IMG/VR virus record: IMGVR_UViG_3300027710_000009
Direction: 5' to 3' (one strand)
Origin: a virus
Lineage: Duplodnaviria > Heunggongvirae > Uroviricota > Caudoviricetes
Length of the DNA: 11,367 nt
Shown here piece after piece: positions 235 to 11,367 of this stretch. A program made the translations under genes and the position numbers. Every line of letters begins with the position of its first letter. The first letter of the stretch is position 1. Under the pieces are notes generated by a model. That model worked only from the letters and a program-made list of their open reading frames with translations. It did no database searches and had not been told where the DNA came from.

Positions 235-263
235 TTGACAGTTCAAGTATTTATAGGTATGGT
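235..263 (+). promoter_or_regulatory. Putative sigma70-type promoter for the plus-strand block
   Basis: Perfect TTGACA (235-240), exactly 17 nt spacer, TATGGT (258-263; 4/6 match to TATAAT with T1, A2 and T6 kept), upstream of ATG 320. Confidence 0.55.
248..255 (-). promoter_or_regulatory. T4-like late promoter box TATAAATA
   Basis: Plus strand tatttata is TATAAATA on the minus strand, an exact T4 gp55 consensus, 27 nt upstream of ATG 220. Confidence 0.7.
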
Positions 264-280
264 CCAAAATTGGGGTCGTC

Positions 281-288
281 CATAAATA
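281..288 (+). promoter_or_regulatory. T4-like late promoter box variant (CATAAATA)
   Basis: 7/8 match to TATAAATA, 31 nt upstream of ATG 320, followed by an AAGGAG SD at 308-313. Confidence 0.6.
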
Positions 289-319
289 CCTATACAACAA
301 AATCAATAAGGAGCTCTCG

Positions 320-601
320 ATGGGTGAAATATTCAAAATCATCGGTGACCTAGGAATGCCAGTAGCAGTAGCACTTGCGGGTGGATACTTTGTGTATCTA
401 ACCATCAAGCTGTTGTTGGGTGGTGTGCTAGGTAGTATCAAAGGCATGGCCGGTATTATTACCGCGCTGGACAATCGTGTTAAAACCATGAACCACGACG
501 TGGTACGCATTGATACCATTGTATCCAATGCACTGGGTCTGCGTCCTGACGTTGATCGCATTGCACGTGCAGATGGCAAGAACGATGCAAGGAGGGACTA
601 A
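320..601 (+). CDS. Small membrane protein (N-terminal TM helix + coiled coil); paralogue of 1567-1959
   Basis: AAGGAG SD; hydrophobic LGMPVAVALAGGYFVYLTIKLLLGGVL followed by the heptad-like LDNRVKTMNHDVVRID. The N-terminus resembles YvrJ/BhlA-type small membrane proteins (pattern only). Confidence 0.85.
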   Translation: MGEIFKIIGDLGMPVAVALAGGYFVYLTIKLLLGGVLGSIKGMAGIITALDNRVKTMNHDVVRIDTIVSNALGLRPDVDRIARADGKNDARRD

Positions 602-750
602 TGGGAAAATATCAACAATGGTGGGATAGTCTAAGCCCACAGATGCAAACTTACCTCAAAGCCCAACCAGTGTGGCATGATCGAGATTTATACAAAGCAC
701 TATTAATCGGAATTGTTATTGGTTTTGTCTTGGGTGTAGCTATCGTGTAA
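601..750 (+). CDS. 49-aa membrane peptide (below the ORF-track cutoff)
   Basis: TAATG overlap with the previous stop, AGGAGG SD at 590-595. Translation MGKYQQWWDSLSPQMQTYLKAQPVWHDRDLYKALLIGIVIGFVLGVAIV has a C-terminal TM helix and fills the gap up to the next SD. Confidence 0.85.
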   Translation: MGKYQQWWDSLSPQMQTYLKAQPVWHDRDLYKALLIGIVIGFVLGVAIV

Positions 751-762
751 GGAGTTGGGGTT

Positions 763-1542
763 ATGGATCCTGTAACCCTATTTGCACTTGCAAACGGAGC
801 AGTCTCCGCGGTCAAAGCTGGCTGCAAACTCTACAAAGATATCAAAGGTGCCGCAGGCGATGTACACGATGTCATCAAAGACCTAGACGCACAATTTCAC
901 AAACTGTATGATGGCAAACCTGGTGGCGCACCTCCTGCCGCTGTTAAACAACTCAAAGAAGAAAAAGCTCGTGTCAAAGATCTAAACAAACGCGAAAACG
1001 AAACCACAAACATTTACCATGAGATCGGTAACCACCTGGGTACCTACTATGACAACTACTACAAGTGTCTGGCTGTGTTTGAGGAAGAAGAAAAACGTAT
1101 TCATACTGAAGTTTACAGTGGCAACGATAGTCTAGGCAAACGTGCTCTACAGCGTGTGCTCATGCGCAAGCAATTAGAGGCAATGAATAAAGAACTACGA
1201 GAAATTATGGTGTACCAGATGCCAGTTGAACTTGGTGCATTGTATACCGAAGTTGAAGCCATGATGAAAGAAATGGGTAAAGAACAAAAGGTCTTGGTTG
1301 CTCGTCAAATGCAAAATCAAGCTCGTGACGAAAAAAGACGCCGTGCAAAATTGAAAAAATTAAATGAGCAGTTTGTGATCAGTGTCATCATGTTGGCGTT
1401 TGTTTTTACCTTGATGTACATCTTTGCCACGGTGATTAACATGCGTATGGAAAAATACCCAGAACTAGGCAACTGTGCATTTCCAAAAGGAACTGTGGTG
1501 TATGAAAAATGGACCAACACCGTTTGGTCAAACTGCAAATAA
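763..1542 (+). CDS. Hypothetical helical protein with a C-terminal TM anchor and two-Cys tail, 259 aa
   Basis: AAGGAG SD at 749-754; long charged alpha-helical body; TM segment FVISVIMLAFVFTLMYIFATVI; C-terminal tail with two Cys (GNCAF...SNCK). Confidence 0.85.
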   Translation: MDPVTLFALANGAVSAVKAGCKLYKDIKGAAGDVHDVIKDLDAQFHKLYDGKPGGAPPAAVKQLKEEKARVKDLNKRENETTNIYHEIGNHLGTYYDNYYKCLAVFEEEEKRIHTEVYSGNDSLGKRALQRVLMRKQLEAMNKELREIMVYQMPVELGALYTEVEAMMKEMGKEQKVLVARQMQNQARDEKRRRAKLKKLNEQFVISVIMLAFVFTLMYIFATVINMRMEKYPELGNCAFPKGTVVYEKWTNTVWSNCK

Positions 1543-1545
1543 ATA
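1538..1545 (+). promoter_or_regulatory. Late promoter-like box AATAAATA overlapping the upstream TAA stop
   Basis: TAAATA core 21 nt upstream of ATG 1567, with AAGGA at 1551-1555. Confidence 0.5.
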
Positions 1546-1566
1546 ACAAAAAGGATATCAATTATC

Positions 1567-1959
1567 ATGGAAGATATTGCGCTGTTAGTCAACAAATATG
1601 GATTTCCAATCGTCATGGCGGTTGGACTGGGCTACATTATCAAATACGTTTGGGAATGGGCCACCAAAGAAGTTAAACCAGTAATTAGCGATGCAAATAC
1701 TGTGCTTATCGCACTAATAGATCGCATACGTATGTTGGACAACGATTTGATCCGTTTGAATCAAAAGGTCAACACTGTGTTGACCATACGTGGTAAAATG
1801 ATTGAATCGGATCGTGTGATGGAAACTGCTATTACCGAAGCTGAAGCCAACGCCAAGTTCCACGATGCAATGGACGAAGCTGACAGCATCAATGCAAAAG
1901 CAAAAAAGAAAAAAATAGATTCTGCAGATGATAAAGAAGCCAAAGCTGGAAGTTCTTGA
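1567..1959 (+). CDS. Small membrane protein (N-terminal TM helix + coiled coil + charged tail); paralogue of 320-601
   Basis: YGFPIVMAVGLGYIIKYVW TM segment; LIDRIRMLDNDLIRLNQKV coiled coil; aligns without gaps to 320-601 over 75 aa. Confidence 0.85.
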   Translation: MEDIALLVNKYGFPIVMAVGLGYIIKYVWEWATKEVKPVISDANTVLIALIDRIRMLDNDLIRLNQKVNTVLTIRGKMIESDRVMETAITEAEANAKFHDAMDEADSINAKAKKKKIDSADDKEAKAGSS

Positions 1960-1960
1960 T

Positions 1961-1966
1961 TAAATA
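1961..1966 (+). promoter_or_regulatory. Late promoter-like TAAATA directly before an SD-less start
   Basis: TAAATA-GCTGT-ATG, with a 5 nt gap and no SD. Confidence 0.5.
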
Positions 1967-1971
1967 GCTGT

Positions 1972-2562
1972 ATGACTATTGTGTATATACACGGTGCTAG
2001 TGCTACCAGTGAAAGTTTTGTGCATATTCAAGAGCACATAAAGAGACCCAGCATTGCCATTGACTATGACAGTTCTAATGGATTTGCTAGTAATCTAAAA
2101 GCCATGAAAGAACGTCTAGACGATGTAGAAAAGATCTTCTTTGTGGCACACAGTCTTGGTGGCATCTATGCACTACATCTAGCTGACTATTTCCAACACA
2201 AGGTACTAGGCGCTGTTACACTCAGCACACCCTACGGTGGCAGCAGACAAGCAGACTATGCAAAATATTTTCTACCATTCTCAAGACTCATGCGTGACAT
2301 AGGCCCTGCTAGTGATCCAATGTCTCGAGTCAAAGAACTTAGATTTCCTAGAGACAGATGGACCAACGTAGTTACCACTCGAGGACAAAGCCCTTGGATG
2401 GTTGAAGAAAACGATGGTGTGGTCACGCTCAAGAGCATGCGCTATTGCAAAGAAATGGAATTGGTTGAATTACCATTGAACCACTACGAAGTGGTGATAA
2501 GTAACAAAACAGTTGATATTATTAAAGATCGACTCAAAAGAACACCCTTAGGACCGCACTAG
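1972..2562 (+). CDS. Alpha/beta-hydrolase (lipase/esterase, PGAP1-like pattern)
   Basis: Oxyanion motif IHG, nucleophile elbow AHSLGG (Ser61), TLSTPYGGS, NDGVV (Asp148) and NHY (His171) give a complete Ser-Asp-His triad in canonical order. No signal peptide. Confidence 0.9.
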   Translation: MTIVYIHGASATSESFVHIQEHIKRPSIAIDYDSSNGFASNLKAMKERLDDVEKIFFVAHSLGGIYALHLADYFQHKVLGAVTLSTPYGGSRQADYAKYFLPFSRLMRDIGPASDPMSRVKELRFPRDRWTNVVTTRGQSPWMVEENDGVVTLKSMRYCKEMELVELPLNHYEVVISNKTVDIIKDRLKRTPLGPH

Positions 2563-2625
2563 TTGCGAGGGCGCCCGGGTGCTGGGCGTAGCAAGCGATT
2601 CGCTACCGTGAACTACAAAGTGACC
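2545..2625. ncRNA. Candidate structured RNA element (or atypical bidirectional terminator) between convergent genes
   Basis: Three abutting stems: CCCT/AGGG + CGCA/TGCG with a TAGGAC bulge (2545-2571); CGCCCGG/CTGGGCG (2572-2588); TAGC/GCTA with a 9-nt loop (2589-2605). GC-rich relative to its surroundings. No U-tract on the plus strand. Family not identified. Confidence 0.5.
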
Positions 2626-2626
2626 A

Positions 2627-3385
2627 CTATTCTTCCATCTTGGCAATGAACTCAGCTTCAGGAATACGTGTTCTTGTATTCTTGCTACCCAACACAACAA
2701 CCACTTTATCGCCTAGTTCAGTGTCCAACAACAGAACAATACATCCGCCTGCGAGATTAGTGAAACCTGTTTTGCTAACAACGACTCGACGGTCTTTGCC
2801 AATCATTGGATTGGTGTTGTTAAAGAACAACCATTTCTTCTTTAGTTTGATCTCTACTCTGGTTTGTTTGCTGGCATCTATAATAGCACCATAGGTACGT
2901 GCGGCTCTGACCAATAACACAAGTTCTCGAGCAGTACTTACATTACGATTGTCTAAGCCAGTGGGATCACTCATTGATGTACGAGTCATCCCTAGGCTTT
3001 GTGCTTTGCTATTCATTGCAGAGATACAACTACCGCGGCCTCCCGGATAGTGGTCGCAAAGCACAAAGCTGGCACGATTATCGCTGTGAACCAGGCTCAT
3101 CTCCATCAATTGACGACGTGTAAATGACAGTCCTGAACGCTTTTTAGTCCCGGGTACTAGTGTGATAACTTCATCCATGTTTTGTTGTGCATCTAGCACA
3201 ACCATTGCAGTCAATAACTTGGTAATAGATGCAATAGGCCGAAGTTCGTCTATATTTTCGCTGGCAATTATGCTGCCTGTGATGTCAGACACCAGCCAGC
3301 TTTTGGCAGTGACAGGTTGAGACTTTGCGGCGTTCCCAGAAATACAGAAGGCAAGAAGTACACTTGCAAGTAATAAAATACGCAT
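2627..3385 (-). CDS. Secreted D-alanyl-D-alanine carboxypeptidase/endopeptidase, peptidase S11 (PBP7/PbpG-like)
   Basis: Signal peptide; all three PBP motifs intact: SxxK (RPIAS53ITK56), SxN (S101DN) and KTG (K205TG); also DPTGL. No C-terminal membrane anchor. Confidence 0.93.
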   Translation of the reverse strand: MRILLLASVLLAFCISGNAAKSQPVTAKSWLVSDITGSIIASENIDELRPIASITKLLTAMVVLDAQQNMDEVITLVPGTKKRSGLSFTRRQLMEMSLVHSDNRASFVLCDHYPGGRGSCISAMNSKAQSLGMTRTSMSDPTGLDNRNVSTARELVLLVRAARTYGAIIDASKQTRVEIKLKKKWLFFNNTNPMIGKDRRVVVSKTGFTNLAGGCIVLLLDTELGDKVVVVLGSKNTRTRIPEAEFIAKMEE

Positions 3386-3398
3386 GGGTCAATTTAGA

Positions 3399-5438
3399 TT
3401 ATTTTTCGTGAGCAACGAACTCGCCGTTCCAATTGGGACCGAGGTCTTGTTGTTTCATAAAGTCACAGCGTTCAATCCACATCTTGTAGTACTTGTCCAT
3501 TTGTCCACCAAAGCTGCCTTTTAGTTTCTTACACATCACAGCCGCTTCGTCAAACTTCTTGGCTCGATACAAGTCGTGCATGACATCATGTGCTATCTTA
3601 TCTCTGGTGTAATCCACACCCCGTGTACGCAGAACTGTGTAGATCAAGTCTGCTACAGTTTTACCCTTTGGTTGTAAGTTATCTAATAACAAGTAGAAGA
3701 AATCATCTTTGGTTCTGTTGTATGTTTCTGCTCCAACAATAGCTAAAACTCCGTATGCTTTACAACGTGCTTCTAGTCGTGCCGCAGTTGAAACCATGTC
3801 GCCTAAAATGTCATAGCTATGTCGTTCTGTTGAACCCATTTCACCGATAAAGCCAATACCTGAGTTACAACCCCAACCCATTGCGGCTGGTGGTAAGCCT
3901 TGTGCTTCCATTAGCTTAGTGTACTCGTCTACTCGATCCAACATCTCTAAGCCTACCTTAACGATAGTGCGAGCATGATTAGGATCTTCAATAGGAGCAC
4001 CGTGTATGTGCATACTGGCATCACCCACATACTTGATGACCATACCTTTGTTATCTAACATAGGCTGACTGATAGCATCCATGTAACCGTTCATGTACTT
4101 GCCTAAGCCGCCCACGTCATCACCGTAGTGTTCACCAATGGGAGTGAAGCCACGCAGGTCTGAGAACATAACACTTACGTCTTTACGCACACCACGCTTG
4201 ATCAAGTCTGGATCTTTTTGTAACAGCTCTACAACTTCTTTTGAGCAGTAGCCAGCAAACTGTTTCTTTATGGCTTGCTTTTGCAAGAACTCACTTATAA
4301 ACTTAACACCATAAGCGTGAAGCATGACCAGAACAAGGCCAACCACGATAGCAGTTGAGTCAAAGAGCCAACTAAACTGTGAATAAGCATAGGACCCAGC
4401 GAACACACTAGACCCAATAATAACAACACCTGAAATGATACCAACATAAGTCCACCTTGTTAAAAATAGCAATAGCAATCCTGCGGCCAGCATAGCCGCA
4501 ATTTCCAATGCATCTGCATAGTCTGGACGTTGAATAGTTACATTGTTAAACATGGTGCCTAGCACTGCGGCCTGTGCTGTGTTGGGATACACTGCACCAA
4601 TTGAGGTAGGTAGTGGATTCACAATACCTGCCGCTGTAGGACCCACAAGGACTACTGCGCCTTTGAAGTCAGCAGGCAGTTTAGTAATACTATAAGCGTG
4701 TGACTTTTGTGACCAGTCAATCCAAATACGTCCTAGCTCGTCTGTGGCAATAGGCCCAAACTTTGGAATGCGCATTTTCTCCACGCCCCATTCATTGAGC
4801 TTGACCTGAAACGTTGAGTCTCCGGCGGCAATGCGTAAAACTTCCATGCTAAGACTAGGGTACAGTTTATCGTTGCTGGCTACCACAAGAGGAATGCGTC
4901 GATTCACTCCATCAATCTCTGGCATGGTGTGTACTGTGCCAACACCCACAGCTGAGTTTTCTAGCACAGGCACGTTGGCAATCACGCCAGGGTAGTTAAC
5001 AATGTTTTCCATCCATTCGGGTCCCATCACAGCCGAGCCTGGATTGCGTGGAATGTTTTTGTTTCGATCGCTAGGAACATTTACCAGTACTACTGGATAC
5101 TGTTTAAGAGCGGCAGCAAGATCCCCGTCACCACCAGTTCTATCGCTATCAGCCATGATAACATTGAGAACAACAAGCCCAGCACCACGATTGTACAAAT
5201 CTTTAATAATCTTTGCATATTCTGCCCTTGGTAATGGCCATTGGCCATATTTGTCCAAGCCGGCTTCGTCGATGTTGACCGTGACAATGTTGTTTTCAGT
5301 TGGGGCCTTGGATGTAATTAGTGTGTCAAAGTAACGTAGTCTCACGCTTTCAACAAATGCTGGGTCTGCAACTCGTATGCACAATACCAACGCCAGGGTT
5401 AGCAATGCTGTCCATGGGCTCAGCAGTAGTTTTTTCAT
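3399..5438 (-). CDS. CHASE2-domain class III adenylate cyclase, 679 aa
   Basis: Start re-called to 5438 (MKKLLLSPW): GGAG SD, one base after the upstream stop; the track's 5489 start overlaps the upstream gene. Architecture: N-terminal TM; periplasmic CHASE2 (IVTVNIDE, YGQWPLPR, DGVNRRIPL); three TMs; cyclase motifs FSDLRGFT, KYVGDA, YDILGDMVSTAARLE; TPR-like tail ending WNGEFVAHEK. Confidence 0.93.
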   Translation of the reverse strand: MKKLLLSPWTALLTLALVLCIRVADPAFVESVRLRYFDTLITSKAPTENNIVTVNIDEAGLDKYGQWPLPRAEYAKIIKDLYNRGAGLVVLNVIMADSDRTGGDGDLAAALKQYPVVLVNVPSDRNKNIPRNPGSAVMGPEWMENIVNYPGVIANVPVLENSAVGVGTVHTMPEIDGVNRRIPLVVASNDKLYPSLSMEVLRIAAGDSTFQVKLNEWGVEKMRIPKFGPIATDELGRIWIDWSQKSHAYSITKLPADFKGAVVLVGPTAAGIVNPLPTSIGAVYPNTAQAAVLGTMFNNVTIQRPDYADALEIAAMLAAGLLLLFLTRWTYVGIISGVVIIGSSVFAGSYAYSQFSWLFDSTAIVVGLVLVMLHAYGVKFISEFLQKQAIKKQFAGYCSKEVVELLQKDPDLIKRGVRKDVSVMFSDLRGFTPIGEHYGDDVGGLGKYMNGYMDAISQPMLDNKGMVIKYVGDASMHIHGAPIEDPNHARTIVKVGLEMLDRVDEYTKLMEAQGLPPAAMGWGCNSGIGFIGEMGSTERHSYDILGDMVSTAARLEARCKAYGVLAIVGAETYNRTKDDFFYLLLDNLQPKGKTVADLIYTVLRTRGVDYTRDKIAHDVMHDLYRAKKFDEAAVMCKKLKGSFGGQMDKYYKMWIERCDFMKQQDLGPNWNGEFVAHEK

Positions 5439-5439
5439 G

Positions 5440-6270
5440 TTAGAATCTCCAATAGAAATATTTAGTACTAAATCCCACAGCTCTTTCAATCATGTCATGA
5501 TCCATTCGTTCTAGCACAGGAAGATGCAAGCTAAACATTGTAATAGTTTCGTCCTGCACAATCTGTTGTATTTCCTGTTCTGTGGGCGGAGTTGCGTCAG
5601 TCCAGTAGATCTTGCTGTAGTTTTGGTGTGTTCCAACATCAGGTTGGTCAAATCCACGACTGGTAGCATAAAGATCATACATGATAAATTCACTAGGTAA
5701 TTTTGTTTTCAACAACCAAATACAGGCGTTTATATCGCCACCAAAAAACTCAAACATACTCTTGGCAGTGTCAGGGTCAATCCAAAATGGAGTGTGTGGC
5801 GGACGATACAGTTGAGGTTCTGCAATATTAAATTTTTGGTGGCATTGTTGTGCAAACTCATGAAAAGGGTCATGAGATCCGCGTCGTCGATGTTGCTCAA
5901 AGTCTTGGACTTTTGCGTTTTGAACCAGCCAATTTTTAGAGTCAAGCACCACGTACTTTTTGTCTGTCTTGGTTGAAAACAATAACTTCAGTGCCTGTTG
6001 TGTTTTCCATCCGTTGCTACTGACCGGAATTGGTAATGTTTTTTTAGCAAATTTGTAAAAATCAGGAAAATCGTTCAGTGTGTAAACACAAACACTATGA
6101 CGCCAAAGATATTTTTTACAATTAGCCTGGTACCAAGCCATCCACGACTCTGCATCTAGTTCGTTAACAACAATGTTGATTGTTGTGCGTGAAAGATATT
6201 TACAAAAACTCCAACACTGCACTTGAAACTGCCATCGGTCTCGGTCACAGGTTACCACTAGAATTTGCAT
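5440..6270 (-). CDS. DUF6492-like protein, probable GT-A-fold glycosyltransferase
   Basis: N-terminal strand ILVVTC; GWKTQQALKL; YVVLDSKN (DxD-like position); HTPF; PSEFIMY. This motif series matches my recollection of DUF6492. No signal peptide. Confidence 0.65.
   Translation of the reverse strand: MQILVVTCDRDRWQFQVQCWSFCKYLSRTTINIVVNELDAESWMAWYQANCKKYLWRHSVCVYTLNDFPDFYKFAKKTLPIPVSSNGWKTQQALKLLFSTKTDKKYVVLDSKNWLVQNAKVQDFEQHRRRGSHDPFHEFAQQCHQKFNIAEPQLYRPPHTPFWIDPDTAKSMFEFFGGDINACIWLLKTKLPSEFIMYDLYATSRGFDQPDVGTHQNYSKIYWTDATPPTEQEIQQIVQDETITMFSLHLPVLERMDHDMIERAVGFSTKYFYWRF
5459..5464 (-). promoter_or_regulatory. Late promoter-like TAAATA for the cyclase, inside the 3' end of the upstream gene
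   Basis: CTAAATA on the minus strand, 20 nt before ATG 5438, with the GGAG SD (5447-5450) in between. Confidence 0.45.
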
Positions 6271-6273
6271 GGG

Positions 6274-6402
6274 TCACTGCACCATGAGCCAGCCAATCAG
6301 CAAACCAATACCAAAGGACCACAGGCAAGTAACAAAAACCAGTGGTATGTAGGTCCACTCATTGTCGATGATTTTTTTCCAATCTAGTGCCATAGCAAGC
6401 AT
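6274..6402 (-). CDS. 42-aa membrane peptide (below the ORF-track cutoff)
   Basis: TAATG overlap with the upstream stop. Translation MLAMALDWKKIIDNEWTYIPLVFVTCLWSFGIGLLIGWLMVQ has one TM helix. Its stop lies 3 nt before the next ATG. Confidence 0.75.
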   Translation of the reverse strand: MLAMALDWKKIIDNEWTYIPLVFVTCLWSFGIGLLIGWLMVQ

Positions 6403-6698
6403 TATACAGCACTCCCAAACATAGGTCTAGAGTTTGTGCCTGCACCCAGCACACATGCAACCTGTTTGTTGTACTTGATCAGAGTCCATGAGTTTTCTTT
6501 GGTGTTTTCAAACATCATGTATCCTGATCCGTCTCGTGTGTCCTTGCCCGACCATACCGGTTTTTCACCGTAGTTGTTGATGATTGCGTCTATTACAATT
6601 TCTACTTTATCGCAAAGCGATGGATGCATGTATTGAAATGCTTGGGCGTTGACTACGCTGTGCGAGCAGAATAGGAACGCCAGTGCTAGTAATCGCAT
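6402..6698 (-). CDS. Small secreted/periplasmic protein with two Cys, 98 aa
   Basis: AAGGAG SD (6705-6710); signal peptide ending VNA|Q; Cys in PSLC and VACVLG suggest a disulfide. Confidence 0.85.
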   Translation of the reverse strand: MRLLALAFLFCSHSVVNAQAFQYMHPSLCDKVEIVIDAIINNYGEKPVWSGKDTRDGSGYMMFENTKENSWTLIKYNKQVACVLGAGTNSRPMFGSAV

Positions 6699-6717
6699 AA
6701 CTGGCTCCTTAAAGCAG

Positions 6718-6725
6718 TATTTATT
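6718..6725 (-). promoter_or_regulatory. Late promoter-like box AATAAATA overlapping the upstream TAA stop
   Basis: Same 8-mer and same stop-overlapping geometry as 1538-1545; 19 nt before ATG 6698 with an SD in between. Confidence 0.5.
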
Positions 6726-8991
6726 GACGTACTGTTATAGAGCAACCAGCTGGGTTGGTGCAACTTTGGATAATGGTAAAGTTCTTGCCACCTGATTGCT
6801 GTAGATCCAGGGTGGCAGGGCCACCTGCGTTGGTCAAGTCTATGTTGGCTTTGTTTTGCTGTGAGCCTTCTTGTACCACCAATGCGCTGTTGTTGTTACC
6901 AGTTAGGTTGGTTGTGAGTTGATGCTGTCCTGTGCCCTTTTGTACAGCATCAACTGTGTTGTTGTCGCCTGCGATCGTGGTAAACATGATCTTGTTGCCG
7001 TTGTCTGTTTGGCGTTTGGTAACGTTGTTTTGATTGCCATTGATCGTGGTTTCTTGATACTGGCCGCCCAGTGTGGTATTGCTTTGTTGTGTGGTCAATA
7101 CATTTTGATATCCGTTGACGTCCACAGCCTGATAGTGCCCGTTGGTGCCAATTTCTGCACCCAGGGTGTCACGAGCTTGTCCAATATTCAGTGTATTTTG
7201 GTTGCCAATCACACGCAGGTTGATTTCGTTTTGTCCTGCACCTGTGGTTCCTTGTTTGACAGTGACACTGTTGTAGGAACCTTGTACCACAGCGGCACTT
7301 TGCCCAATGCCCGACAATAAATTTTTGCTACCTACTTGTTCAATATCCAAAGTGTTGTTGTTGCCATTGACATCAAGGTTGACGCTGTTGCCTGTGTTTA
7401 ATGTTTTGTTCTGCCAGGTGTCCACACGAGTCTGTTGATCTGTGCCTAGGCCTGCAGAGCTGTTGCCACCCGAAGTAATGATCTCTTGGCCGGTACTGTT
7501 GGTTATGGTAATAGTACCGCCCTCCACAGTGGGGCCCAGTGCCACGCTGGTGCCACTTGTATTGACCACAGCAGAGTTAGAGTACACAATGCCTGTGGTG
7601 TCAATAACAGTCGACTCGGTGATCCAGCCTGTGGTGAATGCAGAGTTAGGAATGCTCATTCTGCCTGCGCCGTAGTCCCATTGAAACCGCATTCCGTATC
7701 CACCCAGATCGTTCCAATACCATGCTTCAAGATTATAAGTTTGTCCAGCAACAACATCTATCCATCCACTAGCAGTGTATCCGCCAATGCTTTGCCATTG
7801 ATTGGTTGACTGGTCATTTATAATTGTGCCGCCATTTACGTTTAGCACAAATCCGTCGTCACTGTTGCTGTAAAAGTACAATCGATACACAGTACCAGCT
7901 GGCCGAGCAACTGTAACAGGAGCAGTGATTGTACCTTTGTAATGTACCAACGTTCCGTCGCCCATGGCTGGGAATGATCCATTTGTAGGAACATATATTC
8001 CACTGTTGGTAACACCTGTGGCAACTTGATTGTATGCACCTGGTGACAAGTTGGGCACACGATAAGGACCAAACAAGTTTTTGGCACAACCAAAAATACT
8101 ACAAGTATAAGTGTACGCATCAAAGTCATACACTCGGTAGGTTAATCCAGTTTGTACATTTTGTGTTGTGGTTGTTACTGCACCGTTGGCTTCGATTGTT
8201 TTGTTGCCATTGGCATCGGTTACTGTGTTGATAGGTGTGGTGTAAACAGTCAGCACACCATTTGTAATCTTGTTAGTTACCACGTTGGACGCAACACGAG
8301 TTTGGTATACAGTTTCAGTGCCATTTGCGTTTGTGGTTGTGCCATCGCTGTAGGTTGTTGTGGTCACAGGTGTGCGATATACAGTAGTTGTGTTACCACT
8401 TACTACATTTCTTGTTGTGTATGTTACTGCGGTTCCTGTTACGGTCACAACAGGCGCGGTTGGCGTTACAGTTTGCCCTGCGGCCAAGGGCGTTGTTGAT
8501 CCACCCTGAGCGTATGTGTTGACTTGTGTTACTGTGGGATTTACTGTACCAGTCCAAGTAACTCCACTAGTGTTAGCAAAGCCTTGTGTCATACTAAACA
8601 ACTGTCCAGTGTTATTATCGTTGCCCACAAAGAAGAAATAGTCTGTGCCCATGTTAATAATGCGGCCAGTTCCCATTACTGCTTTTTGTGTTCCGTTGGC
8701 CGCATATTGAATAGCATTGAATGGATTGGTAGCATCACCTGTTGGTACAAAGGCAACATAGTCGCCTGTGGCCCATGCGAGTTGTCCTGAGGTCCATGGT
8801 ATCTTATACACTGTTCCGGGGTTCTTACTGTAGATTTGGCAAGTGGCTGTGTACATACAGGCGCTGACGTTCCACTGACTGTCGGCAATTTGATATCGTC
8901 CAAACTTTAAGTCAGCCAGACCTGATGCTTGTCCAAATGCAGGCAAGCAAAACAACATTGCAAACACAAACTGTAATAAACGTTTTATCAT
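6721..8991 (-). CDS. Secreted multidomain protein: unknown N-domain + Thr-rich repeats + PA14 domain + C-terminal curlin-like repeats, 756 aa
   Basis: Signal peptide ending AFG|Q. PA14 signature YxGxITAP...FYSNSDDGFVLNVNG...GQTYNLEAWYWN..GG...RFQW (about 7630-8150). Repeated N-x-h-x-h-x-Q-x-G / G-x-x-N strands from about 7390 to the end. ATGA overlap with the FecR gene. Confidence 0.88.
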   Translation of the reverse strand: MIKRLLQFVFAMLFCLPAFGQASGLADLKFGRYQIADSQWNVSACMYTATCQIYSKNPGTVYKIPWTSGQLAWATGDYVAFVPTGDATNPFNAIQYAANGTQKAVMGTGRIINMGTDYFFFVGNDNNTGQLFSMTQGFANTSGVTWTGTVNPTVTQVNTYAQGGSTTPLAAGQTVTPTAPVVTVTGTAVTYTTRNVVSGNTTTVYRTPVTTTTYSDGTTTNANGTETVYQTRVASNVVTNKITNGVLTVYTTPINTVTDANGNKTIEANGAVTTTTQNVQTGLTYRVYDFDAYTYTCSIFGCAKNLFGPYRVPNLSPGAYNQVATGVTNSGIYVPTNGSFPAMGDGTLVHYKGTITAPVTVARPAGTVYRLYFYSNSDDGFVLNVNGGTIINDQSTNQWQSIGGYTASGWIDVVAGQTYNLEAWYWNDLGGYGMRFQWDYGAGRMSIPNSAFTTGWITESTVIDTTGIVYSNSAVVNTSGTSVALGPTVEGGTITITNSTGQEIITSGGNSSAGLGTDQQTRVDTWQNKTLNTGNSVNLDVNGNNNTLDIEQVGSKNLLSGIGQSAAVVQGSYNSVTVKQGTTGAGQNEINLRVIGNQNTLNIGQARDTLGAEIGTNGHYQAVDVNGYQNVLTTQQSNTTLGGQYQETTINGNQNNVTKRQTDNGNKIMFTTIAGDNNTVDAVQKGTGQHQLTTNLTGNNNSALVVQEGSQQNKANIDLTNAGGPATLDLQQSGGKNFTIIQSCTNPAGCSITVRQ

Positions 8992-10094
8992 CGTTGTATC
9001 AGGGTAATGGTAGTACCGCCGCCTTGGTTAACACGGTTCTTGAATTCCAAACTACCTTGTGTTTGATAGATGGTTGAGCTTTGTGTTTGTGGTGTAGTCA
9101 CACATTGTCTGTCACTGCCGGTGTCACGACATAGTGTAATCTGTGGATCATCTTTGGTCACGACAATACCGCTGGACTTTTTGTAGTCAGGCAACATGTT
9201 GTCTGTGTCTTTGAGAAAGTCTTCATTGAGTGAGTTGCCCATTACCTCAAACAAATTGGCAAGATAGTTACTGTCCAAAAAGTTACGACTCAGCTTGTCC
9301 TGATACAAGTTGGCCATTTGTGCTTCTAGCACATTGTCCAAGCCGTCAAATTTGAAAAAGTCTTTGTCCAGAGGATTGTTAGTAGCTTTGATCTCTGTAC
9401 GCCCTTCTCGAATTTCTCGAGGTGGAGAAACAATTATCATGTTGTTGATGGCATCTTCACTTAGTCTTAGTAACACAGGCTTGGCTGGTACTGAACTGCG
9501 ATTTGCCACCCTTGTGGCTTGAAATGCCTGGTTAAGTATCACCTGACCTGCATCGCTTTCTACCACAATGCTTCCTGTTACACAGTTTGCTTCAACATCG
9601 TCTCGTGTTCTTGTTCGGCGATCGTTAGGACAGGATGGAAGCAAGATAATAGTACTTGCTCCAACTTCATCAACTGTGGCTGTGAAATCTGTGCCGCGCA
9701 CACTGATGGTTGCGCTGGGTGTATTGAGTGCTACTTTTTGAGGATCGTTTTTGGCAATTTGGCCACTGGCATAACGCACAGTGCCCAAGGCCATGTTCAA
9801 GGCCAGCTTGCCTGTTTTCTTGTTTGCATCGTAAACAAAGTCATCAATTACCAACTTTGAATTTTCGTTTACTTGTACCTTTGTATTGTCGTCAAAGGTT
9901 ATGCCCACTTTTCCCTGTGCTGTTCGTATCGAGTCCGCCATCTCCACTCCGGTGCCCTTGGCTCCGGTTATGGATTGATTCTTCCTTTGGATCGACGGCG
10001 GCGTGTTCAATTGCTCGGTGATATTCCCTATCCCGGCGTAGCTCTGCGATATAGGCAACAACAGCCCGCATAGTAGTAGCATCCATGTTTTCAT
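8988..10094 (-). CDS. Secreted FecR-domain protein, 368 aa
   Basis: GGAG SD; signal peptide ending SYA|G; FecR pattern DSIRT...ITFDDNTKVQVNENSKL...LGTVRY...TPSATISVRGTDF; acidic linker with L-x-x-D/N-F-L repeats; curlin-like C-terminal strands. Confidence 0.88.
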   Translation of the reverse strand: MKTWMLLLCGLLLPISQSYAGIGNITEQLNTPPSIQRKNQSITGAKGTGVEMADSIRTAQGKVGITFDDNTKVQVNENSKLVIDDFVYDANKKTGKLALNMALGTVRYASGQIAKNDPQKVALNTPSATISVRGTDFTATVDEVGASTIILLPSCPNDRRTRTRDDVEANCVTGSIVVESDAGQVILNQAFQATRVANRSSVPAKPVLLRLSEDAINNMIIVSPPREIREGRTEIKATNNPLDKDFFKFDGLDNVLEAQMANLYQDKLSRNFLDSNYLANLFEVMGNSLNEDFLKDTDNMLPDYKKSSGIVVTKDDPQITLCRDTGSDRQCVTTPQTQSSTIYQTQGSLEFKNRVNQGGGTTITLIQR

Positions 10095-10129
10095 TTATCT
10101 CCCCATTTGAACCAGTCATGCTTTTGAAT

Positions 10130-10897
10130 TTAGTTTCTCTGAATAATAGTGAAGCTGTTGCTATTACCCACGCCTTTGATATTTGTTGTCATATCAATTG
10201 TGCCACTTTGTAGGATGCTCACATTGTTGCTAGAGCCAGTTAAATCAACCTTGGCATAGTGTCCATTTATGCCGCCGCCACTTTGTGTGATGCCAATGAT
10301 GTTGGTTGCGCCAACAGTTACAACATCTACTGTGCCTTTGTCGCCGGTCATTTGTAGAGTTGTTTCGTTACCAGTACCACCAGTTTGATTCACAGTGACC
10401 AAGGTGCTGGCCGCATCAATTGTAGCTGAAATTTTGTTTAGATTGCCATCCTGTATGGATGAAAATGTATTGCTATTACCTTTCATGCTAATCTGTGTGT
10501 CTGTGTTGTTGCCAGTCTGTAGCACGTTGATAGAATTTGCAAGGCTGGTTTTGGTGCCGGCATTGTTCATGTCAATACGTGCAGTATTGTTGTTACCAGT
10601 TACCCGGTATGTAATGCTAGAAGATACTCCGCCCGACTGTCCTGTTTGTGCGCCTAGGTCTAGGGTGTTGCCGCTACCTGTTTGCACCACGTCCACAGTC
10701 AATCCGTCGCCGTAGAGTTTGGCTGCAATATCGTTGCTGGCCGCATTAACGCCTCGTATATAGTTGCTTGAACCATCTTGTGTCATTGTAATCGTAGCGT
10801 TGTCGCCGCTCTGATCAATGTAGATGCTGTTGTCTGCCGAGTAGGCTGACCCAAACACCATTGCAATTACAAAAGCAATAATTTTCTTTTTATACAT
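10130..10897 (-). CDS. Curlin-repeat (CsgA/CsgB-like) secreted protein, 255 aa
   Basis: Signal peptide ending AYS|A. The mature chain is almost wholly imperfect N-x-h-x-h-x-Q-x-G-x-x-N repeats (NSIYIDQSGDN, TITMTQDGSSN, TVDVVQTGSGN, SINVLQTGNN, FSSIQDGNLN, VTVNQTGGTGN); rich in N/Q/G/T/S, no Cys. Confidence 0.88.
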   Translation of the reverse strand: MYKKKIIAFVIAMVFGSAYSADNSIYIDQSGDNATITMTQDGSSNYIRGVNAASNDIAAKLYGDGLTVDVVQTGSGNTLDLGAQTGQSGGVSSSITYRVTGNNNTARIDMNNAGTKTSLANSINVLQTGNNTDTQISMKGNSNTFSSIQDGNLNKISATIDAASTLVTVNQTGGTGNETTLQMTGDKGTVDVVTVGATNIIGITQSGGGINGHYAKVDLTGSSNNVSILQSGTIDMTTNIKGVGNSNSFTIIQRN

Positions 10898-10940
10898 TTT
10901 TGTTGGCCAACTGTTTGTGTAATTGTATTGGCCGCTCCCT
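10898..10940 (-). promoter_or_regulatory. Putative split ribosome-binding site: SD - hairpin - ATG
   Basis: Minus strand reads AGGGAG C GGCCAA tacaattacacaaacag TTGGCC AACAAAA ATG. There is no SD at normal spacing. Confidence 0.55.
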
Positions 10941-10965
10941 TTTGTTGTTTTCTTTTTTGCTCCTC

Positions 10966-11367
10966 TTACTTTGATGGCGGAGTGTCAGGTGTAAGAACTA
11001 TATCTCTGACATACCCTTTCTTGCCGTCTTTGGTTTTTACAAAAATCCAACCTTCAGGAGAAGATTGAGTTTCTACCAGAAACGCTTGGCCTTTCTTCAA
11101 TAACCAAGTACGCTGTGATTTTTCATTTGGCTCTTTGTAAACATACGCATCTTGATTGAGATACATTAGTTTATCTTTTGGTAACTCACCTTTGAATTCA
11201 GGCTTGCTAGCTTTTGGAACTAGTCCTACACCATTGTCAGTGGCCTTTAGGGTCGCTTCTACTCGATCAGTAATATCAGTAACTGTGACTTTTGCTACTT
11301 CTTCTTTGATGACAGATTTTTCGCTTCCTGCATTGCTTTCTGACTTGCCGGGCTCGATCGCTGTGGT
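10966..11367 (-). CDS. C-terminal part of a larger protein: low-complexity linker + bacterial SH3 (SH3b)-like domain
   Basis: The frame is open from the window edge (TTAIEPGKSESNAGSEKSVIKEEVAKVTVTDITDRVEATLKATDNGVGLVPKASKPEFKGELPKDKL-MYLNQDAY...), so the track's ATG 11166 is probably internal. SH3b pattern: AYVYKEP...LLKKGQ.F.V.....GWIFVKT.DGKKGYV. Confidence 0.8.
   Translation of the reverse strand, partial: TTAIEPGKSESNAGSEKSVIKEEVAKVTVTDITDRVEATLKATDNGVGLVPKASKPEFKGELPKDKLMYLNQDAYVYKEPNEKSQRTWLLKKGQAFLVETQSSPEGWIFVKTKDGKKGYVRDIVLTPDTPPSK

Follow-up and report, generated by a model that had tools for sequence, protein, structure and literature searches.

Does a phage that carries genes for curli-like fibers also make its host report on them? 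The question is raised by an 11,367-nucleotide stretch of viral DNA (IMG/VR record IMGVR_UViG_3300027710_000009; the whole stretch is here called the window), in which all open reading frames (ORFs) of a block running from 11367 down to 2627 are co-oriented on the minus strand and encode, among others, two secreted curlin-repeat proteins, a FecR-domain protein, and an adenylate cyclase with a CHASE2 sensor domain (Table 1). A reading of the letters alone, below called the original prediction, had proposed that the phage makes the infected cell build an adhesive fiber and converts the assembly or binding state of that fiber into cyclic AMP (cAMP). We find that the window almost certainly contains a further copy of the type VIII secretion (curli) module, with its FecR protein and CHASE2 cyclase, that is known from phages, here in an uncultured T4-like lineage with genomes of ~350 kb. 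For the locus as a whole, the explanation that we modestly favor is that of a known phage curli module whose sensor pair reports the state of the curli or of the envelope as cAMP.

The curli module in the window, its relatives, and the literature

The seven minus-strand genes listed by the original prediction are all present, and Pfam upholds the curlins, the FecR protein, and the CHASE2 cyclase, although an additional ORF of 276 amino acids at 5440-6270 had been overlooked. The claim of a tightly packed, co-oriented run stands for most of the block: the FecR and curlin 2 genes overlap by 4 nucleotides and the other gaps measure 1 to 68 nucleotides, except for a spacer of 131 nucleotides between the ORFs of 98 and 276 amino acids (here s98 and u276). 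The five cleavable signal peptides that had been announced likewise correspond to five N termini of Sec type, judged by inspection, namely, those of the endopeptidase, curlin 2, s98, FecR, and curlin 1.

With the FecR protein as the query, 22 related loci were retrieved from IMG/VR (62 to 87% identity; individual loci fetched in the analysis carry labels such as L003 or L015). CsgF, CsgG, curlin 1, FecR, and curlin 2 follow one another in that order in 22 of 22, and the cyclase comes next in every one of the 18 that reach far enough, so that the co-occurrence of curlin, FecR, and CHASE2 cyclase, which the original prediction had singled out for checking, holds at 18/18 informative loci. Because it is conserved in 22 related loci, the arrangement is not due to chance. 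Among phage records, megablast with the whole window returned no match, and tblastn found the cyclase at 45% identity in four genomes of Methylophilales phage Melnitz and at 36% in Pelagibacter phage HTVC008M, the counterparts of the FecR protein in these phages being 38 to 43% identical to that of the window. Their annotated gene order is CsgF, CsgG, curlin, FecR (or hypothetical), curlin (or hypothetical), and adenylate cyclase.

Since the relatives are viral contigs and one of them, 214 kb long and 61% complete according to CheckV, carries the gene for the T4 major capsid protein Gp23 (E = 9e-83), the phage origin assumed by the original prediction is supported, with Melnitz and HTVC008M as the nearest named homologs. 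CheckV completeness of the relatives ranges from 13 to 61%, corresponding to genomes of ~350 kb. It could be objected that the locus is bacterial, whether a curli operon of the chromosome or the remains of a prophage, or that the curlin-like proteins are virion fibers, given that the window itself contains no phage hallmark gene and that some relatives are filed in bacterial metagenome-assembled genomes (MAGs). However, the bins that contain the MAG contigs are taxonomically unrelated, and these contigs share the same phage neighbors, the small membrane proteins p93 and p130, and the IMG/VR relatives reach up to 214 kb with the T4 capsid gene. Moreover, curlins, FecR, and s98 bear Sec signal peptides and would leave the cytoplasm, where T4-like virions assemble. 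We regard both forms of this objection as scarcely credible. Most of the “bacterial genome” matches to the cyclase (L025 to L034) were in fact discarded as mis-binned phage contigs, from unrelated MAG bins and with p93/p130 and curli genes as neighbors. In the clade of the window, the T4-type genes that surround the module in Melnitz (gp32, gp59, baseplate genes, and others) were not seen at distances of up to 10 kb from the module.

The combination of genes has been published. Wittmers et al. (2022; PMC9599517) explicitly describe a viral type VIII secretion system (T8SS) module of SAR11 phages with FecR and adenylate cyclase, in the order CsgF, CsgG, CsgA/B, FecR, second CsgA/B, and adenylate cyclase (records KC465899 and MZ577097), and report it from all 65 GOV2 stations, with gene ratios near 1:1 and with transcripts. 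The signaling link, in which the original prediction had located the novelty, was thus already on record; its remark that host curli operons have no cyclase is stated in the same paper, according to which canonical bacterial curli operons lack a cyclase and the viral modules lack CsgE, CsgC, and CsgD. The discussion in Zaragoza-Solas (2020) and Buchholz (2022) is confined to the CsgG/CsgF pore, and neither paper refers to the cyclase or to FecR.

The window agrees with the published viral module in its genes and their order, in its T4-like phage background, and in the small membrane proteins nearby, but it differs in several respects. Its lineage consists of ~350-kb phages, with a G+C content of 44%, and its module is inverted relative to p93/p130. 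CsgG of its clade carries an SH3-like tail, and curlin 2 is 756 amino acids long with a head of PA14 fold, compared with 338 to 441 amino acids in the published modules. A periplasmic protein (s98), a DD-endopeptidase, and an inserted cytoplasmic ORF are added. None of these features (the CsgG tail, the PA14 or exchangeable heads of curlin 2, the endopeptidase, s98, and the inserted ORF) is mentioned in PMC9599517; the tail, the heads, the PBP7-like endopeptidase, and s98 are variant features of this copy absent from the published description. With the csgBAC/csgDEFG operons of E. coli the locus shares secreted curlin-repeat subunits and, in the relatives, the outer membrane parts CsgG and CsgF. 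In contrast, no CsgE, CsgC, or CsgD family was found by Pfam in any ORF of the window, the E. coli operon has neither cyclase nor FecR, and the large non-curlin heads are peculiar to curlin 2 of the window in this comparison.

Pore and fiber components

The first ORF of the block (10966-11367) had been taken for a separate SH3b protein. SH3 families of Pfam match it only below their cutoffs (SH3_4, 20.2 versus 24.1 bits), and it aligns to residues 294 to 409 of the 413-residue CsgG of L003, itself recognized by the Pfam CsgG family (170 bits) and by SH3_3 below cutoff, and to residues 356 to 416 of the 416-residue CsgG of L015. Because it corresponds to the last 60 to 115 residues of the CsgG proteins of its relatives, the ORF is the C-terminal tail of CsgG and not a protein of its own. 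The relatives' CsgG proteins (390 to 442 amino acids) consist of the CsgG domain and a tail that ends in an SH3-like domain; tails of 106 to 175 amino acids are found in 18 of the 22, and the SH3-like tail is absent from the Melnitz clade. Judged from these loci, the body of CsgG, together with csgF, should lie just beyond position 11367.

Curlin 1, whose gene is found in 22/22 relatives, consists almost entirely of curlin-type repeats, about nine G-x-x-N units. A profile of 15 homologs matches a solved curlin-repeat protein (PDB 8c50) with an E value of 2e-12 and E. coli CsgA (8enq) weakly (E = 0.049). Curlin 2 is modular. Its signal peptide is followed by an N-terminal domain of no known family (~8482-8931), a Thr-rich beta region, a domain of PA14 fold (~7672-8124), a disordered linker, and a C-terminal solenoid of curlin repeats (~6724-7389) that ends in a C-x5-C loop; in a model built on 17 homologs the solenoid appears as strand-turn-strand repeats between residues 535 and 755. 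The PA14-curlin fusion of the original prediction fares differently by sequence and by fold. The PA14 family scores 17.9 bits against a cutoff of 24, and phmmer gives an E value of 0.13 to PDB 6qdi, whereas Foldseek matches the model to PA14 structures with a probability of 1.0 and E values of 4e-6 to 1e-3, the predicted local distance difference test (pLDDT) of this region being 55 to 82. The structures matched are a GH31 xylosidase, the RsgI anti-sigma factors 6qe7/6qdi, the Marinomonas ice-binding adhesin MpIBP (6x8a), and the yeast adhesin Epa1. A lectin-type PA14 fold for the curlin 2 head is thus supported by the model, and sugar binding is only putative.

Across an alignment of 17 homologs of curlin 2, the curlin solenoid at the C terminus is constant, the PA14 cassette is present in 11 of 17, and two alternative N-terminal heads occur. 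In six relatives (L003, L009, L010, L011, L017, and L018) an unrelated head of ~250 amino acids takes the place of the window-type head, and on the constant curlin anchor, heads and PA14 cassette are freely combined.

Such heads bear on two further explanations of the module. Buchholz et al. (2022) proposed for Melnitz, whose infections showed no aggregation, that no fiber is made and that CsgG/CsgF is a repurposed secretin- or pinholin-like pore that times lysis; in the window, the curlin-like proteins, FecR, and the cyclase would then gate this pore and the endopeptidase would belong to the lysis apparatus. The wall-cutting DD-endopeptidase and putatively wall-binding CsgG tail of this lineage fit such a role, as do the two small membrane proteins that always flank the module. 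But Buchholz et al. assumed that fiber genes were missing, whereas two proteins here pass the curlin-repeat cutoff and one matches a solved curlin. Adhesin-type heads, furthermore, make little sense for a gate, and Melnitz, HTVC008M, and several relatives do without the endopeptidase. A lysis pore without fibers is therefore quite unlikely in our judgment. Alternatively, fibers may be made as a protective coat that excludes superinfection or for the “sibling capture” of neighboring hosts, with the cyclase pair only tuning expression. Both ideas have been raised (PMC7029224 and PMC9599517), and exchangeable lectin-type heads would suit the binding of cell surface glycans, yet Buchholz et al. 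saw no clumping for Melnitz. This account, which we consider very unlikely, uses the same parts as a module reporting curli or envelope state and differs from it in the benefit only.

The FecR protein, the CHASE2 cyclase, and their possible relation to the fiber

The FecR protein matches phrog_37870 from end to end (E = 7e-128). Its FecR fold spans residues ~20 to 215, and the model of this N-terminal domain (pLDDT, 80 to 89) matches the periplasmic signaling domains of PupR (6ovk) and BDI_1681 (4m0n) with a probability of 1.0. As in the FecR/PupR anti-sigma factors, this fold comes with a Gly-Thr-containing motif, here RGTxF, which is invariant in the phage FecR proteins and in homologs from SAR116 bacteria. 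Unlike those factors, the protein has a signal-peptide-like N terminus with the fold beginning at about residue 20, and neither a cytoplasmic anti-sigma domain nor a membrane anchor was found in it; nor did profile scans of the window detect an extracytoplasmic function (ECF) sigma factor or a TonB-dependent transducer.

What follows the fold is peculiar to the phage proteins. They are ~150 residues longer at the C terminus than their SAR116 homologs, which stop soon after the FecR fold, and they end in a curlin-like strand (...TITLIQR in the window). This terminal motif is present in 29 of 29 FecR proteins, including those of the Melnitz clade, and is kept even though the C-terminal halves are only 20 to 26% identical across clades. 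The same motif is found in most curlins; outside FecR and the curlins, it was met in two ORF segments (one protein at two near-identical loci) among ~575 segments that do not belong to the module. The FecR gene, moreover, has a curlin gene on either side.

For the cyclase, the ATG at 5438, 1 nucleotide after the stop of the preceding ORF, is the most likely start codon; the protein matches phrog_35576 over its full length (E = 6e-189). Hydropathy suggests a first transmembrane helix, a periplasmic CHASE2 domain (~4524-5366), a block of membrane helices at residues 307 to 382, and the catalytic domain (~3708-4184), followed by a C-terminal extension of ~85 amino acids. Compared with CyaB from Pseudomonas aeruginosa (3r5g) and across 26 homologs, the catalytic site has kept (in the numbering of the 679-residue protein) the metal-binding aspartates D427 and D473, the Lys/Asp pair that specifies ATP as the substrate, K469 and D543, and the catalytic arginine R554. 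Two pocket types occur in the family: copies with Asp at the substrate site invariably have Ser where class III enzymes have the transition-state Asn of the GxxVNxAxR motif, and copies with Thr or Ser at the substrate site invariably keep the Asn. Most phage copies and the cellular SAR116 homologs belong to the Asp/Ser type. Since the Ser of the window protein, Ser550, is common to the SAR116 homologs and covaries with Asp543, it looks like a lineage trait and not like decay; synthesis of cAMP is only predicted.

The cyclase gene is a mosaic at the level of domains. L015 (14030-16066) and L024 (14616-16664) combine a window-type CHASE2 domain (73 to 75%) with a different catalytic domain (51 to 60%), so that CHASE2 stays with FecR when the cyclase domain differs. 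At L017 (8707-10770), the whole cyclase gene has been exchanged (~40%) and FecR stays at 70%. A related CHASE2 cyclase of the Thr/Asn type (37 to 41% identity) lies at 694-5320 of L031, between amidoligase-like and gamma-glutamyl cyclotransferase-like genes, and no FecR or curlin occurs within this 5.4-kb contig (55% G+C).

A FecR protein beside a CHASE2 sensor is not particular to phages. In a scan with the cyclase profile, for which each prokaryote species was represented by one genome, we found four SAR116 loci with a full-length CHASE2 cyclase homolog (27 to 31% identity), and in 4/4 a FecR-domain protein of 225 to 234 amino acids directly follows the cyclase. In the three for which upstream sequence was available (L039, 4614-12886; L040, 1388-8980; L041, 1328-8703), the pair stands behind a type I secretion system in which cyclic-nucleotide-binding domains are found on the C39-ABC exporter or the HlyD protein, and the whole has the appearance of a cAMP-gated export system. 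CsgG was absent from the four genomes or only marginal. Published examples include the pairing of CHASE2 cyclases with FecR in Campylobacterota (PMC9239204) and an operon with LysM-FecR and a CHASE2 kinase in Burkholderia (PMC5192318), so the pairing is a known bacterial neighborhood and cannot count as new. In Sinorhizobium meliloti, the outer membrane receptor NsrA signals through the CHASE2 cyclases CyaK and CyaD1/D2 to Clr (PMC7529298).

Given the SAR116 loci and the published pairings, we take the FecR/CHASE2 pair for a bacterial envelope-sensing cassette that is associated with varied export systems. The phage module resembles these cassettes in setting a periplasmic FecR protein beside an inner membrane CHASE2 sensor, and it shares with the SAR116 cassette the alignment of the full-length cyclase, the Lys/Asp/Ser pocket, and RGTxF. 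The bacterial cassettes, however, are not linked to curli, they come with a cAMP receptor, a phosphodiesterase, or cyclic nucleotide monophosphate (cNMP)-binding domains on type I secretion, for which no counterpart was found in the phage module, and their FecR proteins do not have the C-terminal extension of the phage protein. So, on this comparison of genes, a phage would have joined a bacterial FecR/CHASE2 cassette to curli and lengthened the FecR protein.

The bacterial pairs also raise the question of whether the pair has anything to do with curli. It might sense some periplasmic cue and reset host cAMP and the CRP regulon, having been captured together with the curli genes in a variable island and being merely coexpressed with them. 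In favor of such independence, the same pair occurs in SAR116 bacteria without curli, a related cyclase is found without FecR or curlin on the L031 contig, modules have swapped whole cyclase genes or cyclase domains (L017, L015, and L024), and the region is hypervariable in pelagimyophages (PMC7029224). Against it speak the co-occurrence at 18/18 loci of the clade, with the gene order kept in a clade only 35 to 45% identical; the FecR gene between the curlin genes, with its 4-nucleotide overlap; the phage-specific FecR extension with its curlin-like end; and gene ratios near 1:1 across 65 ocean stations (Wittmers et al., PMC9599517). Independence from curli is, in our view, unlikely.

Pairwise identities among 20 loci address the partnership of the two proteins: those of the CHASE2 domain correlate better with those of the FecR N-terminal domain (r = 0.79) than with those of its own cyclase domain (r = 0.72). 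A prediction of the complex of FecR (residues 21 to 368) and CHASE2 (residues 22 to 312) from our own alignments scored 0.00 in both runs and decides nothing.

Returning to a curli module whose sensor pair reports on curli or envelope, we can sketch, tentatively and as one possibility among others, how the parts might work together. The infecting phage would install an outer membrane CsgG/CsgF pore, whose SH3-like CsgG tail probably holds it to the cell wall in the lineage of the window. Through this pore it would export two curlin-repeat proteins, a plain fiber subunit and one with exchangeable heads, here of PA14 fold. The secreted FecR protein and the CHASE2 cyclase would act as a periplasmic sensor pair inherited from bacteria, with the curlin-like C-terminal extension of the phage FecR protein as the best candidate for a physical link to curlin subunits or pore. 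This pair would report curli export or the state of the envelope as cAMP, to be read presumably by host proteins, because no phage cNMP-binding protein was seen; endopeptidase, s98, and u276 would serve as variable accessories. It is tempting to go further and to speculate that the phage has rewired the bacterial sensor pair, the FecR strand docking on curlin or pore and the CHASE2 cyclase reading export, or binding by the lectin-headed fiber, as cAMP that times late infection; this more specific version is unlikely.

Several observations count against reading the pair as a reporter on curli. Some concern the fiber: csgG and csgF lie outside the window and we infer them from the relatives, the folded PA14-type heads would have to pass the narrow CsgG channel unfolded, no clumping was seen in Melnitz infections (Buchholz et al. 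2022), and no functional test of a viral curli module was found in the literature searched. Others concern the proposed link. The terminal FecR motif was defined after the sequences had been seen, hhalign places the FecR C terminus on the last curlin repeat only weakly (E = 0.006; probability, 6%), and the C-terminal half of FecR is modeled with low confidence; because the motif is post hoc and the profile comparison weak, the curlin-like ending gives a lead but no proof. The correlations of identities are based on related, nonindependent sequence pairs and are suggestive only, and L017, where a window-type FecR (70%) stands with a foreign CHASE2 domain (40%), argues against a tightly coadapted interface. 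The remaining points concern cAMP itself: the transition-state Asn is Ser550 in this cyclase (window 3789-3791), and the cNMP-binding domain PF00027 was absent from five related phage contigs (558 kb in total; 13 to 61% complete). Profile scans of the window found no cAMP receptor or phosphodiesterase family either. A metallophosphoesterase considered as a cAMP phosphodiesterase was dismissed (24 bits versus the CpdA cutoff of 225; near the module at two loci only).

On these grounds, the genes of the signaling link are conserved and already reported, and the fiber-to-cAMP mechanism of the original prediction is a reasonable hypothesis. The comparison with SAR116, the FecR extension, and the domain swaps make it more concrete, but they do not prove it.

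Accessory genes, surroundings, and significance

Table 1. Positions in the window of the genes of the curli block and of the flanking small membrane proteins
Feature	Position	Strand	Length (amino acids)	Basis or remark
CsgG homolog, C-terminal tail with linker and SH3b-like domain	10966-11367	-		ORF runs off the window; alignment to the relatives' CsgG
Curlin 1, secreted	10130-10897	-	255	Curlin_rpt, 31.5 bits
FecR-domain protein, secreted, stand-alone	8988-10094	-	368	Pfam FecR, 44.6 bits
Curlin 2, modular, secreted	6721-8991	-	756	Curlin_rpt, 21.3 bits (cutoff, 20.7)
s98, small secreted protein with two Cys	6402-6698	-	98	Signal peptide by inspection
u276, without signal peptide or transmembrane segment	5440-6270	-	276	DUF6492-like by language-model look-up only
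CHASE2 class III adenylate cyclase, from ATG 5438 (ORF 3399-5489)	3399-5438	-	679	CHASE2, 131 bits; Guanylate_cyc, 50 bits
PBP7/PbpG-like DD-endopeptidase, secreted	2627-3385	-	252	Peptidase_S11, 137 bits
Two small paralogous membrane proteins flanking a 259-amino-acid ORF; outside the module	320-601 and 1567-1959 (span, 320-1959)	+		phrog_18771 for 1567-1959

Three genes of the block appear, from their distribution among the relatives, to be variable accessories outside the fixed module. The first is the penicillin-binding protein (PBP) of the original prediction, a designation that the Peptidase_S11 match (137 bits) bears out and that can be made more exact, namely, a DD-endopeptidase of PBP7 type. 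Its closest solved relatives are the murein DD-endopeptidase 6muq (E = 6e-40) and 6azi; it keeps the SxxK, SxN, and KTG motifs and resembles endopeptidases more than carboxypeptidases of PBP5 type, and against NCBIfam PRK11669 it scores 177 bits, below the equivalog cutoff of 294. Homologs are present in 13 of the 22 relatives, not always adjacent to the cyclase, and are absent from Melnitz and HTVC008M. The second, s98, has no match in Pfam or PHROG and finds only unnamed viral clusters in the Atlas; eight relatives have a homolog between curlin 2 and the cyclase. For u276, likewise without a Pfam or PHROG match, a feature search of the Atlas gave mostly viral DUF6492 clusters (score, 0.97), which we treat as a lead only. 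Its homologs are limited to L024 and to L003, which has two copies, one of them upstream of csgF, and it probably represents the insertion of an unrelated gene for a cytoplasmic protein.

The gap between s98 and u276 is exactly filled by an ORF of 42 codons (6274-6402, minus strand) with one hydrophobic helix, which begins in a TAATG overlap and stops 3 nucleotides ahead of the next ATG. No relative has a counterpart, and for this reason it may not be a gene.

Beyond the block, the two small membrane proteins at 320-601 (p93) and 1567-1959 (p130) consist of an N-terminal membrane helix and a coiled coil. In the clade of the window, homologs of p93 (89 to 98% identity) and p130 (67 to 91%) are found beside the module and are far more conserved than the module itself; they flank it in every relative. 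In Melnitz, HTVC008M, and L026 to L034, they lie directly upstream of csgF, and in the window they are on the other side, in inverted orientation. The two proteins mark the phage backbone beside which the module sits. Two further plus-strand ORFs look like variable cargo between conserved small membrane proteins: one of 259 amino acids with a C-terminal membrane helix (763-1542), which has a homolog only in L017, and an alpha/beta-hydrolase of 196 amino acids (1972-2562), which has none in any fetched locus. Elsewhere among the relatives, genes near the module encode Hsp20, a ClpX-like ATPase, and an auxiliary protein of ferredoxin oxidoreductase type.

Scans of the window for sigma-70 promoters and terminators gave nothing above chance, and no Rfam family was found anywhere in it. 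A single copy of the full T4 late motif TATAAATA is present, at 248-255 on the minus strand. TAAATA is not enriched in the window (7 copies versus 6.7 expected); six of its seven copies (248-6723) precede a start codon by no more than ~40 nucleotides, the cyclase and s98 being among the genes concerned. Where the hydrolase and endopeptidase genes converge, the spacer at 2545-2630 contains one G+C-rich hairpin; a reading of it as three hairpins was rejected, since the spacer folds no better than shuffled sequences (z = 0.42).

The curli module is globally abundant in aquatic phages, and the copy in the window leaves that picture unchanged. What the copy and its relatives offer is a set of handles on how the module may work: a phage-specific extension of FecR with a curlin-like end, a bacterial pair resembling the ancestor and wired to cAMP-gated type I secretion, natural domain swaps that keep CHASE2 with FecR, and exchangeable lectin-type heads on one fiber subunit. 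If the sensor does read the export of the fiber, the module would be a rare case of signaling from the envelope to the cytoplasm that is run by a virus.

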